Notes: generated by a model from the sequence alone, not told the origin. A stretch of DNA of 64,000 nt from Alphaproteobacteria bacterium (GCA_017479985.1 JAFVBL010000021.1:1390-65389), one strand, 5' to 3'. Counted from the stretch's first letter, positions 58,659 to 62,456 are shown. A program made the numbers and translations.

Positions 58659-60206
58659 ATGCAAGCATTAACAAAAAAATTTATATGGCTGTCGGTTTTC
58701 AGTTTTGTCGTATGGAGTATCATACCGATGTTGCGGCTATCTCTTTCAATGGATACGCAAGAGGCAATCGTTTGGGGCAAATACTGTCTTTGGGGAACAA
58801 CCAAGCATCCGCCGTTTTCCGGTTGGATTGCATACACGTGGTATATGCTGTTCGGGCAAAATGACAATGTTATGTACGCACTGAGCCAGATTTTTGTGAT
58901 ACTCGGCGTGGTGTATATCTACAAATTGGCACAATGTTTTTTGAATAAAATTCAATCTGTTATGGCTGCGGCATTGCAATTCGGCATTATTTATTACGGA
59001 TTTTCCGCACCGGAATTCAATGTAAATGTGATTTCGGTCGGATTATGGCCGATGTGCGCTTATTACTTTTGGCGCGGTTACACACAAAACCGTTGGCGCG
59101 ATTGGCTGCTGTTCGGTGTCTTGGTCGGACTTAATTTACTCAGCAAATATGTGGGAGCAATGCTACTCATTGCGCTCGGAATTTTTGCAATTTCAGATAG
59201 AAACACAATCAAGTTAATTAAAAACATTAAAATATACGGTGCGATTTTTACCGCTGTTTTGTTGTTGGCACCGCATCTTTGGTGGCTGTGGCAAAACGAT
59301 TTTGAATCGTTTAATTATATCTCATCGCGCAGTCACGGCGGAGATGTAACTTCTGTTTGGAGGCATATAATTTACCCGCTTAAGTTTTTGGGTGCGCAAA
59401 TATTGTTTGCAACGCCGGCACTTTTGACGTTTGTGTATTTTTGGCGGCGCAATCAAGAAAAAACGGAACTGCCCGCACCGCGCCGCCTAAAATTGCTCAA
59501 AGACCTCTTTATCTCCTTTGCTTGCACCCGAAATGATTCATATAATACTCAAAGTGACGCATCTGCAGCCCGTTTTATTTTCTGCACGGCAATCATTCCG
59601 GTGGCGGTATTTGCAACAATATGCCTTATTACCGGCAATGCGGCAAAAAGTATGTGGGGATTTCCGTGTTTATTTATGTGGGGAACGGCATTGTTTTATT
59701 TTCTCCCGCCAAAAGTCGATGAAAACACCGCCGAGCGTTTTCTGAACATAATGTTTGTCTGGGTTGCATTGTTTGCGTTTGCCTACGGTGTTCAATGCGT
59801 GGTAACAACAAGCCAGCGCTACCGCACCGATGTTCGGCAGGTAGCGGCAACTTTAGAGCAAAAATGGCAGCAACATACCGGCAAACCGCTTGAATATGTC
59901 GGTGCCGACGTATGGTTCGGAGACATTATGGCGCTTTATGCTTCGCACGAGATTAAACCTATGATTTGGATGAAACCAAAAAGCAATCCGTGGTTTAATC
60001 AGGCTGATTTCGAACAAAAAGGGGCGCTTCTGATTGCCTCGGAAAAAGGCGAATATGCAAATTATCAAAAAATGTACGGTAACAGAGTTTCCGCACCGCA
60101 AAAAATGATGCTTGAATTTCAAAACTATTTTGGTAAAACTAAAACAAAAGAAATAATATACGGATTTTATGAACCTTGGGAGGTTGAAAATGCCGAAAAA
60201 GAATAA
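58659..60206 (+). CDS. GT-C family glycosyltransferase, ArnT/PMT-like (GT83/GT39)
   Basis: Polytopic membrane protein with an acidic first periplasmic loop motif (SMDTQEAIVWGK) and a C-terminal soluble domain. Confidence 0.75.
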   Translation: MQALTKKFIWLSVFSFVVWSIIPMLRLSLSMDTQEAIVWGKYCLWGTTKHPPFSGWIAYTWYMLFGQNDNVMYALSQIFVILGVVYIYKLAQCFLNKIQSVMAAALQFGIIYYGFSAPEFNVNVISVGLWPMCAYYFWRGYTQNRWRDWLLFGVLVGLNLLSKYVGAMLLIALGIFAISDRNTIKLIKNIKIYGAIFTAVLLLAPHLWWLWQNDFESFNYISSRSHGGDVTSVWRHIIYPLKFLGAQILFATPALLTFVYFWRRNQEKTELPAPRRLKLLKDLFISFACTRNDSYNTQSDASAARFIFCTAIIPVAVFATICLITGNAAKSMWGFPCLFMWGTALFYFLPPKVDENTAERFLNIMFVWVALFAFAYGVQCVVTTSQRYRTDVRQVAATLEQKWQQHTGKPLEYVGADVWFGDIMALYASHEIKPMIWMKPKSNPWFNQADFEQKGALLIASEKGEYANYQKMYGNRVSAPQKMMLEFQNYFGKTKTKEIIYGFYEPWEVENAEKE

Positions 60207-61167
60207 ATTGGTCAGTATTGTAATTTCCGCCTATAACGAACAGAATAACGTGGCGGAATTGCATAAACAACTCGACAGCGCCTTAAAAAAATGTGACAGC
60301 GTTGATTTTGAATATATTTTTGTTGATGACGGCAGCAAGGATAAAACATACGAAAATTGTCTGAAATTACAAAAAAAAGACACACGCGTCAAAATTGTGC
60401 AACTCAAACGTAATTTCGGACACGAAATCGCAATGACTGCCGGTATGGATTATGCCAAAGGTGACGCCGTGATTTTTATGGATGCGGATTTGCAACACCC
60501 GCCGGTTTATATTCCGCAAATGATTGAAGCGTGGCAAAACGGTAAAGAAATTGTATTAACGAAACGGTTGGATAATGCCGCAACATCAAAACTCTATAAA
60601 CTGTGCGCCAAGGCGTTTTATTATGTGCTGAACCTGCTTTCCGATATGCCGATTATGGAAAGTGCGCCTGATTTCCGCCTGCTTGACCGCAAATATGTAA
60701 ATTTTCTGAAAGGATTTAACGAACAGGACAGATTGTTCCGCGGCTTACTCAGCTGGATTATGCCGCAGGATAATGTTGCGATTATCGATTTTAAGGCACC
60801 GGAACGGTTTAGCGGCGAATCAAAATATAATTTTATTAAGTCACTAAAATTAGCAATCAACAGTATTGTTCAATTTTCGGTTATGCCGCTCAGAATTGCC
60901 ACCGGATTGGGAATTGTTGCGGCAATAATGGCTTTGCTGATGGGCGTGTATGTATTCTTTGAACACTTCTTTTTGCATAATCCGACCCCGGGATATGCCA
61001 CGATTATGGTTACGGTGGTATTTTTGGGCGCGGTGCAACTGATTTGCCTCGGTATCATCGGCGAATATATCGGCAAAATTCATATGGAAGTCAAAAAACG
61101 CCCGTTGTATGTGGCTGATTTTATTGAAAAGAAAGCAAATAGGAATGAGTCTGAAAATCATATTTAA
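60190..61167 (+). CDS. Polyprenyl-phosphate hexose(amine) transferase, GT2 (ArnC/GtrB/DPM1-like)
   Basis: VSIVISAYNEQNN, FVDDGSKD, DADLQHPP (DxD), and two C-terminal TM helices. ATG with GGAGG SD; overlaps the upstream gene by 17 nt. Confidence 0.85.
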   Translation: MPKKNKLVSIVISAYNEQNNVAELHKQLDSALKKCDSVDFEYIFVDDGSKDKTYENCLKLQKKDTRVKIVQLKRNFGHEIAMTAGMDYAKGDAVIFMDADLQHPPVYIPQMIEAWQNGKEIVLTKRLDNAATSKLYKLCAKAFYYVLNLLSDMPIMESAPDFRLLDRKYVNFLKGFNEQDRLFRGLLSWIMPQDNVAIIDFKAPERFSGESKYNFIKSLKLAINSIVQFSVMPLRIATGLGIVAAIMALLMGVYVFFEHFFLHNPTPGYATIMVTVVFLGAVQLICLGIIGEYIGKIHMEVKKRPLYVADFIEKKANRNESENHI

Positions 61168-61993
61168 TGCCGATGATTTCGGTATCAGCCGCGGTGTCAA
61201 TGCGGCGATTGTCGAAGCACATACCAAAGGTATTTTGAACAGCACCAGTTTAATGGTCAACCAGCAGTTTGCCGATGAAGCGGTCGCGGCGGCAAAAAAA
61301 ATGCCGGCTTTGGCAGTCGGACTGCATCTGAATCTGACAAATGAAACACCGGCGGCAAATCCGGCGGAAATTCCGCTTTTGGTCGGAACGGACGGAAAAT
61401 TGAAAAACGGTTTTGTAAATTTGCTGCTGCTCTCAATTTTACATCCGAAAGCTTTTGCCGCACAAACAGAAATCGAGGTGCGCGCACAAATGCAAAAGTT
61501 TACGGCAAACGGGCTGAAACCGACGCATATTGACGGACACCGTCACGTACATTTAATTCCCGAAGTATTTAAAATTGTGCGCAAAATACAAGAAGAATAT
61601 AAGATTCCGCGCGTGCGGACAATGAATGAAAATGCGCTTAATACGATTTTGCAGAACCGATCCAAAAGTTGGCTGTTTGACGGCGGCCTCGTCAAATATT
61701 TTATTTTACGCTTTTTAACGTGGTGGAACGGCTATAAATCCGACGTATATTTTTACACGATTTTATTTACTTGCAAAATTTCGCACGAACAATTTCGGAA
61801 TATACGGATTCCGCGCGGGTATAAAGCCGTTGAAATTATGATTCATCCGGGTTACCCTGATATAGACAAACAAATGCCGGATACAATCTGGGACAAGAAT
61901 ATTCTGTCTGATTGGCGCACTGTAGAATTACAAACTTTGCTTCATAAAGAAGTGCTCAACAATATTCACGAGACGGGAGAAAACAATGATTAA
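61145..61993 (+). CDS. YdjC-family carbohydrate deacetylase (NaxD/ChbG-like)
   Basis: LKIIFNADDFGIS N-terminus and DGHRHVH motif typical of the YdjC family. An alternative ATG lies at 61109. Confidence 0.7.
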   Translation: MSLKIIFNADDFGISRGVNAAIVEAHTKGILNSTSLMVNQQFADEAVAAAKKMPALAVGLHLNLTNETPAANPAEIPLLVGTDGKLKNGFVNLLLLSILHPKAFAAQTEIEVRAQMQKFTANGLKPTHIDGHRHVHLIPEVFKIVRKIQEEYKIPRVRTMNENALNTILQNRSKSWLFDGGLVKYFILRFLTWWNGYKSDVYFYTILFTCKISHEQFRNIRIPRGYKAVEIMIHPGYPDIDKQMPDTIWDKNILSDWRTVELQTLLHKEVLNNIHETGENND

Positions 61994-62456
61994 GCTGATT
62001 ATAAAACTATATTTATGGGCGGAAAATCTGTGGTTTACTTTTCCTGAAAAATTGCGTTTTTTGCTGGTCGGCGGATTTAATACGGTTCTGGCGTGGTCAA
62101 TCTTGGCAACACTTGACTGGAGTTTCGGTAAAATAAATGCGGCAGCCGACTGGAATTTGCCGTCGATATGGGTGGCAAATGCGGCTCTTATCGTGCAATA
62201 CATCATCACCATCAACATTTCGTTTATGACAATGCGTTATTATGTTTTCCGCAGTCACGGCAATATTTTCAAAGAATGGATAAAAGCGTGGTCGGTATAC
62301 ATTTTTATTTATCTGATAAACGCACCGTCAATGAGTTTTCTGATGTGGCTCTTTAATTTGAAAGCGTGGCAGGCACAAGGCATCTATTTGGTATTTTCAA
62401 CCATTATCACATTTATTTTGCATAAATATTATTCGTTCAGACAGGAAAAAGCATAA
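61986..62456 (+). CDS. GtrA-family small membrane protein (putative polyprenyl-P-sugar flippase)
   Basis: 156 aa with 4 TM helices and LLVGGFNTVLAW; GGGAG SD; overlaps the YdjC stop. Confidence 0.7.
   Translation: MIKLIIKLYLWAENLWFTFPEKLRFLLVGGFNTVLAWSILATLDWSFGKINAAADWNLPSIWVANAALIVQYIITINISFMTMRYYVFRSHGNIFKEWIKAWSVYIFIYLINAPSMSFLMWLFNLKAWQAQGIYLVFSTIITFILHKYYSFRQEKA

Follow-up and report, generated by a model that had tools for sequence, protein, structure and literature searches.

The question raised by this locus is what a cluster of four overlapping genes makes in an uncultured alphaproteobacterium, and on which part of the cell envelope the product would be placed. The genes occupy positions 58659–62456 of a 64,000-nucleotide stretch of DNA (Alphaproteobacteria bacterium, GCA_017479985.1 JAFVBL010000021.1:1390-65389; hereafter the window) and encode, in order, a GT-C glycosyltransferase with the Pfam domain PMT_2, a GT2 glycosyltransferase, a YdjC-family protein and a GtrA-family protein. 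An earlier interpretation made from the DNA alone (the sequence-only reading) had described a tightly linked locus with overlapping gene boundaries that resembled the lipid A hexosamine pathways. The results given below indicate that this cassette is most likely a hexosamine-donor glycosylation operon of uncultured gut and rumen Alphaproteobacteria, kin to the known lipid A hexosamine pathways and built on a different, uncharacterised GT-C family.

The conservation of the cassette was examined in a scan that used one genome per GTDB species. The scan found 109 relatives, from which 80 loci were kept; judged by record title, nearly all are metagenome-assembled genomes (MAGs) of uncultured Alphaproteobacteria from the rumen or from the horse, rabbit or human gut. 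Gene order was judged by tblastn with the four window proteins, for which 76 loci were long enough. The GT2 and YdjC genes lay beside the GT-C gene on one strand in all 76, and the full order GT-C, GT2, YdjC, GtrA was kept in 75. Together with the open reading frames (ORFs) of the window, this confirms the tight linkage and the order, which the sequence-only reading had written as T-A-C-D. Identity to the window proteins was 36–73% for GT-C, 63–92% for GT2 (78 loci), 39–81% for YdjC and 38–81% for GtrA. The GtrA gene was cleanly lost in L009 (MAG Tb.RUG.243, 10349–11830), where GT-C, GT2 and YdjC are followed directly by a homologue of a 234-residue orphan found downstream of the cassette in the window. 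The flanking genes were kept in closer relatives only, these being Band_7/NfeD genes and an orphan of 1146–1161 residues upstream and the 234-residue orphan downstream. Since the order of the four genes is fixed while the flanks vary, the four genes form a conserved functional unit, and the recurrence of this unit is far above chance. Homologues of the GT-C protein carry names only as GT39 proteins of uncultured Alphaproteobacteria. Five records titled Bacteroidaceae, Eubacteriales, [Ruminococcus] gnavus or Lachnospiraceae (L033, L036, L041, L044 and L071) carry the cassette with alphaproteobacterial synteny and are probably mislabelled or contaminated bins.

When the flanking genes of the 80 genomes were clustered, the recurrent ones were HAD-like, CcrM-like methyltransferase, Ppx/GppA-like (assigned by eye), pilin and autotransporter genes; no two-component system or PAP2 gene was found among them. 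The presence of an autotransporter gene indicates that these organisms have an outer membrane. Genes for lpxA and lpxB were located on the cassette strand, 3–5 kb downstream and after the autotransporter gene, in seven related genomes that form one sub-clade (L052, L054, L055, L057, L058, L062 and L080). The lpxA product of this sub-clade, aligned along most of its length, is 41–43% identical to its E. coli counterpart; for the lpxB product the figure is 34–37%. A full-length MsbA-like gene lies upstream in L049. Judged from its gene content, the lineage makes lipid A. The autotransporter gene between the cassette and lpxA gave a Pfam Autotransporter match of 4e-42, and a 282-residue ORF sits between lpxA and lpxB. 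Band_7 (SPFH) genes lie no more than a few kb away from the GT-C gene in the window lineage (with NfeD; 53968–54945 in the window) and in two distant relatives, L096 and L183, which may be coincidence.

The four protein assignments of the sequence-only reading, including that of the GT2 protein as a polyprenyl-phosphate sugar synthase, were borne out by Pfam matches that exceed the gathering cut-offs by a wide margin (PMT_2 2e-31, Glycos_transf_2 3e-32, YdjC 1e-60, GtrA_DPMS_TM 3e-10). The GT2 ORF spans 60169–61167 on the plus strand (332 residues); public gene calls, taken from identical metagenome contigs and from NCBI, start at 60190 and give the 325-residue form that is adopted here. The protein has a cytoplasmic GT-A domain followed by two C-terminal transmembrane (TM) segments at residues 229–263 and 267–295. 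It gave a full-length match to GtrB sll0501 of Synechocystis (5ekp; residues 8–309 against 28–326) of 247 bits, compared with 124–132 bits for ArnC and 80 bits for DPMS. Sequence identity was 38% to phage GtrB, 30% to E. coli ArnC and 36–39% to the GT2 proteins that are paired with distant relatives of the GT-C. Two NCBIfam models were matched below their equivalog cut-offs, PgfS with 281 against 500 bits and ArnC with 146 against 529 bits. The GT2 protein is predicted to be a synthase of the GtrB/ArnC/DPMS type that makes N-acetylhexosamine linked to undecaprenyl phosphate (Und-P-HexNAc).

The YdjC ORF spans 61109–61993 on the plus strand (294 residues; 282 residues from the public start at 61145, the form adopted here). 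An AlphaFold2 model with a predicted local distance difference test (pLDDT) score of 85.9 was compared with known structures using Foldseek; the top match was ChbG (7vi8, E 6e-16), and the best superposition was obtained on the N-acetylglucosamine (GlcNAc) deacetylases ChbG and CmCBDA. The catalytic motifs are kept, namely the aspartates of NADDFG and the histidines of GLH, HIDGHRHVH and IHPG, and residues D10, D11, H61, H128, D130, H132, H134 and H234 do not vary among the 22 homologues compared. Neither a signal peptide nor a TM helix was predicted. The protein is predicted to be a cytoplasmic N-deacetylase of the ChbG/HpnK/NaxD type, converting Und-P-HexNAc to the free amino sugar form, Und-P-HexN. 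It contains strongly conserved hydrophobic helices at residues 86–100 and 180–195; in the alignment with ChbG the first faces a hydrophilic stretch and the second falls in a segment that is not aligned. Because a lipid-linked substrate would require the enzyme to dock on the membrane, we infer that these helices serve for docking and that the enzyme is probably peripheral.

The highest-scoring NCBIfam model for the YdjC protein was HpnK, with 158 bits, which brings in the idea that a hopanoid or another membrane lipid is modified, as HpnI and HpnK make glucosaminyl-bacteriohopanetetrol. This score lies below the equivalog cut-off of 232.6 bits, and that of ChbG, also under its cut-off, is nearly equal (152 bits). 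The GT2 protein gave no HpnI match and reached only 22 bits with HpnB, neither the window nor the flanking genes showed any hopanoid gene (hpn, shc), and the HpnI/HpnK route works without a GT-C and without GtrA. Modification of a hopanoid or similar lipid is thus considered highly improbable, and the HpnIJK pathway was rejected on the sub-threshold HpnK score, the missing HpnI and the absence of hopanoid genes among the neighbours. The last ORF of the cassette, at 61986–62456 on the plus strand (156 residues), encodes a small polytopic membrane protein that matched GtrA_DPMS_TM with 2.7e-10 and 40.9 bits against a cut-off of 26.1. It is proposed to act as an Und-P-sugar flippase or as an accessory subunit.

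The GT-C ORF spans 58659–60206 on the plus strand and encodes 515 residues. The AlphaFold2 model (pLDDT 89.6, predicted TM-score (pTM) 0.89) consists of approximately 13 TM helices, followed at the C-terminus by an alpha/beta domain in the periplasm, and the protein is predicted to be a periplasmic hexosamine transferase. A D-x-x-E motif follows the first TM helix, and its D and E are invariant in alignments of both close and distant family members, which gives the first extracytoplasmic loop the conserved acidic residue expected of the transferase in a three-component glycosylation system. Further conserved motifs are K-H-P-P, E-F-N-V-N and P-H-x-x-W. All significant Foldseek matches in the PDB were GT-C enzymes, headed by ArnT of C. 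metallidurans (5ezm, E 4e-7, TMq 0.46, 12% identity) and followed by AglB, OST, AftA, PglB and Pmt4.

The resemblance to ArnT did not extend to sequence. Neither the GT-C protein, searched with phmmer, nor two family profiles matched any PDB chain, ArnT included; E. coli ArnT matched none of 387 collected GT-C family members, and hhalign returned a probability of 3%. E. coli ArnT is recognised by Pfam PMT (211 bits) and PMT_2 (37 bits), and the window GT-C by PMT_2 (PF13231) only, with no NCBIfam match. The two proteins share a superfamily and a fold, not a family, and the label 'ArnT-like' in the sequence-only reading holds only in that ArnT is the top fold match.

Membership of PMT_2 also places the GT-C protein in one superfamily with the protein O-mannosyltransferases, so that the transferase might move hexosamine from Und-P-HexN to Ser or Thr residues of envelope proteins, possibly including the large orphan membrane protein encoded divergently upstream. 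The top NCBIfam match of the GT2 protein, PgfS, comes from a streptococcal protein glycosylation operon, and the orphan, a fast-evolving protein of 1146–1161 residues, adjoins the cassette in 29 of the 80 loci of the genome scan. The PgfS score is far under its cut-off, however, and all GtrB-like GT2 proteins that were tested, those from other contexts included, scored alike against this model. Most of the loci with a preserved cassette lack the orphan. The PMT (PF02366), MIR and C-terminal PMT_4TMC domains are absent from the window GT-C, which is not a member of the PMT family (GT39 in the strict sense), and Pmt structures ranked below ArnT, OST and AftA in the fold search. We know of no protein O-hexosaminylation that uses a YdjC route. 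Protein O-glycosylation is accordingly regarded as an improbable role for the cassette.

An exhaustive hidden Markov model (HMM) search with the GT-C family retrieved 7,936 cluster representatives (50% identity) at E<=1e-3 and 1,157 at E<=1e-30. Named members belong to the Gammaproteobacteria (a Solemya symbiont, Sedimenticola), Alphaproteobacteria (Arenibaculum, Cohaesibacter, Rhizomicrobium), Desulfobacterota (Desulfatitalea), Planctomycetota and Kiritimatiellota (Pontiellaceae), all of which we take to be diderm lineages. Most of these proteins are 26–28% identical to the window GT-C over nearly the full length and score 249–334 bits against the family HMM. On sequence grounds the window GT-C is assigned to a large sub-family of PMT_2 that is uncharacterised and has no solved structure.

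Ten contexts of distant GT-C relatives were sampled. A GT2 gene adjoined the GT-C gene in every one, a GtrA gene was nearby in three, and a YdjC gene was present in none. The GT-C pair was immediately preceded by an MlaA gene in two contexts, and two lay in lipopolysaccharide (LPS) or lipid A gene clusters. In Desulfatitalea the cluster comprises an epimerase, an MsbA-like ABC transporter, GT-C, GT2, Lip_A_acyltrans (LpxL), GT4 and PAP2 genes, with a Wzy_C ligase (WaaL) gene opposite, and in Pontiellaceae an MsbA-like transporter, GT4, GT-C, two GT2 genes and glycosyltransferases of the O-antigen or outer-core type. A metagenome scan for distant relatives gave 80 marine loci; nearly all belong to a single low-GC lineage of uniform synteny, so that diversity was not increased. 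The GT-C–GT2 pair was present in 66 and a YdjC gene was found in none of the 80. The cassette thus shares with the pairs of Desulfatitalea, Sedimenticola, Cohaesibacter, Planctomycetota and marine Alphaproteobacteria the same GT-C family, an adjoining GT2 and at times a GtrA gene, and differs from them in its YdjC gene. Relative to these distant pairs, the deacetylase is an extra component peculiar to the clade of Alphaproteobacteria from gut and rumen.

The best GT-C matches in annotated cultured bacteria were those of Variovorax and Shinella, where a GT2 gene and a gene for a ChbG/HpnK-family deacetylase adjoin. Variovorax sp. PDNC026 has the gene order of the window and Shinella the order GT2–GT-C–YdjC. 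Their GT-C proteins are distant, with 110–138 bits to the family HMM, and because their YdjC proteins are only 25–32% identical to that of the window, the association of YdjC with the cassette may have arisen more than once. Other weak GT-C matches were found in Rhizobium and Pantoea plasmids, near PAP2 phosphatases and two-component systems. Two records from the plasmid collection, L086 (NZ_OL790812.1, Proteus mirabilis, 4.1 Mb) and L089 (NZ_CP069303.1, Shinella, 4.6 Mb), are evidently chromosomes; in the Proteus record the gene that comes after PMT_2 encodes a GNAT acetyltransferase and not a GT2.

Taken as a pathway, the four proteins suggest the following sequence of steps. The GtrB-type GT2 would move HexNAc from UDP-HexNAc onto undecaprenyl phosphate at the cytoplasmic face of the membrane; GlcNAc is the default guess for the sugar, as the cassette has no epimerase. 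The cytoplasmic and probably membrane-peripheral YdjC enzyme would then strip off the acetyl group to leave Und-P-HexN, the lipid-linked amino sugar would be flipped with the assistance of GtrA, and the GT-C transferase would place the cationic sugar on a periplasmic acceptor, most likely lipid A or the inner LPS. Hexosamine at this position would make the surface of a gut commensal less negatively charged. The general mechanism, in which a lipid-linked hexosamine is made, deacetylated, flipped and transferred, is put forward with considerable confidence. The genes present, their intact catalytic motifs, the folds, the operon structure, the deep conservation and the occurrence of lipid A genes in the lineage are observed; which sugar is used, in what order the steps run, whether a flippase role applies and what the acceptor is are the parts that we infer.

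The acceptor was considered separately. Lipid A or the inner LPS is favoured firstly because the GT-C gene is a fixed core gene throughout the lineage, unlike the serotype-specific Gtr transferases, and secondly because the GT-C family, judged from its named members, appears to be restricted to diderms. In addition, some relatives sit in LPS or lipid A gene contexts, and to our knowledge every known Gram-negative Und-P-hexosamine donor serves lipid A. Several observations weigh against this interpretation. Sequence similarity between the GT-C protein and ArnT is undetectable, and the fold match, at TM 0.46, is a modest one that OST, AftA and Pmt nearly equal; the GT2 protein is nearer to GtrB than to ArnC. 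Only a minority of the GT-C relatives have an LPS context, and the YdjC proteins of Variovorax and Shinella are only distantly related to that of the window. Among the annotated ORFs of the window, no regulator resembling PmrAB or BvgAS and no PAP2 phosphatase adjoins the cassette, and none of these ORFs is an lpx gene. The identification of lipid A or the inner LPS as the acceptor is accordingly held at about even odds or slightly better. As a whole, the description of the cassette as an operon that decorates the envelope with hexosamine from the periplasmic side, a three-component glycosylation system with a deacetylase added and with lipid A or inner LPS as its acceptor, is judged somewhat more probable than its negation.

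The same Und-P-HexN chemistry could instead serve a polysaccharide, such as the outer core, O-antigen, capsule or an exopolysaccharide, through a Gtr-like modification of side chains with an amino sugar in place of glucose. The likeness to the GtrA/GtrB/GtrC systems is considerable, since the cassette combines a GT2 most like GtrB-type enzymes, a GtrA-family protein and a GT-C. Three-component systems that modify the O-antigen are common (PMC11127046), and the Pontiellaceae relative lies among glycosyltransferases of the O-antigen or outer-core type. The GT-C enzymes of O-antigen systems are typically serotype-specific, variable and often phage-borne, however, whereas the window GT-C is a PMT_2 protein that gave no tblastn match in 50,697 phage records, GtrC proteins included. 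Its cassette is chromosomal and conserved across species, and a stable core gene with fixed synteny in 80 species-level genomes suits a conserved acceptor better. The YdjC gene is a further difference, as the known Gtr cassettes contain no deacetylase. A polysaccharide acceptor is therefore considered unlikely. The narrower candidate, a Gtr cassette for O-antigen seroconversion, was rejected on the lack of a GtrC match in the phage records and on the fixed chromosomal unit in the 80 genomes. The sequence-only reading had named clustering with Gtr cassettes or with protein O-mannosylation systems as the finding that would count against it; the GT2 protein, being closer to GtrB than to ArnC, goes half-way towards this, and the GT-C protein, with no phage or GtrC match, does not.

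The preferred assignment, a hexosamine pathway with lipid A or inner LPS as its acceptor, was compared with the characterised systems. The architecture of three-component periplasmic glycosylation has been reviewed (PMC11127046, PMC8035078), and its elements are found here in a GtrB-type GT2, a GT-C fold with an acidic loop residue and a co-located GtrA gene. The cassette also encodes a YdjC protein with intact catalytic residues together with a GT2 and a GT-C, which is the combination expected of a lipid A hexosamine pathway. LgmABCD of Bordetella, which modifies lipid A with glucosamine, has the four functional classes of the cassette: a GT2 synthase for the Und-P-sugar, a GT-C transferase, a deacetylase of the YdjC type and a small membrane protein. 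The lgmA–C genes follow the same logic of synthesis, deacetylation and transfer (PMC4993483, PMC4410734). Loss of GtrA in L009 echoes the reported dispensability of lgmD in Bordetella (PMC4993483), and the cultured alphaproteobacterium Shinella has the lgmABC order GT2–GT-C–YdjC. The differences are that the order here is T-A-C-D, that regulation of the BvgAS type is not evident and that the window GT-C has no detectable similarity to ArnT, whereas LgmB is called an ArnT orthologue in the title of Marr 2008, as cited in PMC4993483.

The second comparison is with FlmF2, NaxD and FlmK. The Francisella gene FTN_0544 is the third of a set of adjacent genes. FTN_0545 and FTN_0546 are adjacent, and flmF2 and flmK have been described (PMC2233673). 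In Francisella and Acinetobacter the YdjC-superfamily enzyme NaxD deacetylates undecaprenyl-phosphate-linked N-acetylgalactosamine before its transfer to lipid A (PMC11279074). The likeness lies in a GT2 that makes Und-P-HexNAc, a YdjC-superfamily enzyme that deacetylates it and a GT-C that transfers the sugar to a lipid A phosphate (PMC2233673, PMC11279074). A GtrA partner is not described there and is present here, an epimerase is absent from the cassette, and the host is a gut commensal lineage and not a pathogen. The resemblance to Lgm and FlmF2–NaxD–FlmK drawn in the sequence-only reading therefore stands as a functional parallel of GT2, YdjC and GT-C, with or without a small membrane protein, while the designation 'lgmABCD type' is not established.

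The Arn pathway for 4-amino-4-deoxy-L-arabinose (L-Ara4N) follows in concept the same strategy, in that an N-blocked, lipid-linked amino sugar is unblocked at the membrane and flipped, after which a GT-C transfers it. By structure the GT-C protein matches ArnT best, and ArnC is a clear homologue of the GT2 protein. Deblocking in that pathway is performed by ArnD, an enzyme of the NodB/CE4 type, and not by YdjC, and the flippase is ArnE/F and not GtrA. E. coli ArnD, ArnE and ArnF showed no homology to the four cassette proteins, and no genes of the ArnA or ArnB type were present among the Pfam-annotated ORFs of the window. The L-Ara4N pathway was rejected on the ArnC model score, the undetectable similarity to ArnT and the lack of ArnA, B, D, E and F.

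The gene models and limits of the cassette were determined from ORF calling on the window, which placed four co-directional plus-strand ORFs at 58659–62456, the span given in the sequence-only reading. An ENA metagenome scaffold of 69 kb was identical to the window over the approximately 18 kb of the locus that were compared. Depending on the start chosen, the GT-C and GT2 ORFs overlap by 17–38 nt and the GT2 and YdjC ORFs by 23–59 nt, and the YdjC and GtrA ORFs overlap by 8 nt. The public calls start the GT-C gene at an internal ATG at 58728, giving a protein of 492 residues that loses the predicted first TM helix. A TM helix is predicted at residues 7–31 of the 515-residue form, and the consensus of 43 aligned GT-C homologues has an N-terminal hydrophobic segment before the conserved D-x-x-E loop. 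Because both the consensus and the prediction keep this helix, 58659 is the better start and is probably correct. The GC content of the cassette (0.39–0.44) is the same as that of the neighbouring DNA. The window is chromosomal and contains elsewhere the dcw cell-division cluster, ATP synthase genes, FtsH, ClpB and RuvC.

The presumed promoter region of the operon is the AT-rich intergenic stretch at 58500–58658, between the divergent orphan gene and the GT-C gene. Promoter-like matches in this region were weak and no commoner than in shuffled sequence, and over the promoter and terminator scan as a whole the sites were no more numerous than in shuffled sequence. A sigma-70-like site matching 11 of 12 positions lies at 62484–62512, between the GtrA stop codon and the downstream 234-residue gene, and likely marks the 3' limit of the unit. 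The downstream gene was rejected as a fifth member of the cassette, as it is kept only in close relatives (30–36% identity) and is preceded by this strong promoter-like site. It lies at 62547–63251 (+), matches no family and is probably a separate transcription unit.

The divergent orphan ORF on the other side of the cassette lies at 55014–58499 on the minus strand and encodes 1161 residues (1146 on the public contigs). It has no Pfam or NCBIfam match; Q, E and P are abundant in the N-terminal part, and the middle of the protein contains hydrophobic stretches rich in Gly and Ala. Its fast-evolving homologues (24–53% identity) occupy the same position in the 29 loci mentioned above and are absent from more distant carriers of the cassette. 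Elsewhere in the window, the ORF at 26385–27911 (+) encodes a 508-residue sulfatase-domain protein that is OpgB/MdoB-like (127 bits, far under the equivalog cut-off) and is another candidate envelope-modifying enzyme. The ORFs at 7640–9097 (−) and 50572–51621 (+) gave only weak LRR_4 (leucine-rich-repeat) matches, the former adjoining ftsZ in the place occupied by lpxC in E. coli, and those at 31922–34603 (−), 40859–42235 (+) and 38681–39583 (−), of 893, 458 and 300 residues, have no Pfam match.

If the product of the cassette is hexosamine-modified lipid A, a whole uncultured lineage of gut and rumen Alphaproteobacteria would mask the charge of its LPS constitutively, by a route that to date has been described in just a few pathogens (Bordetella, Francisella and Acinetobacter). 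Each of the 80 species-level genomes sampled has the cassette. This would bear on the resistance of commensals to host cationic peptides and on the reading of LPS by TLR4. A wider and more tentative view is that this PMT_2 sub-family could represent a second class of glycosyltransferases for lipid A or the inner core, independent of ArnT, that the gut and rumen lineage recruited YdjC independently of Bordetella and Francisella, and that the LPS of these commensals bears a cationic hexosamine constitutively; we regard this as possible and lean somewhat against it. If the lipid A assignment is true, the cassette would also open a first way into the function of this very large and uncharacterised GT-C family, which in diderms is paired with GT2. 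Should the acceptor differ, it would still be a clean four-gene system with which to make and transfer a lipid-linked amino sugar heterologously.

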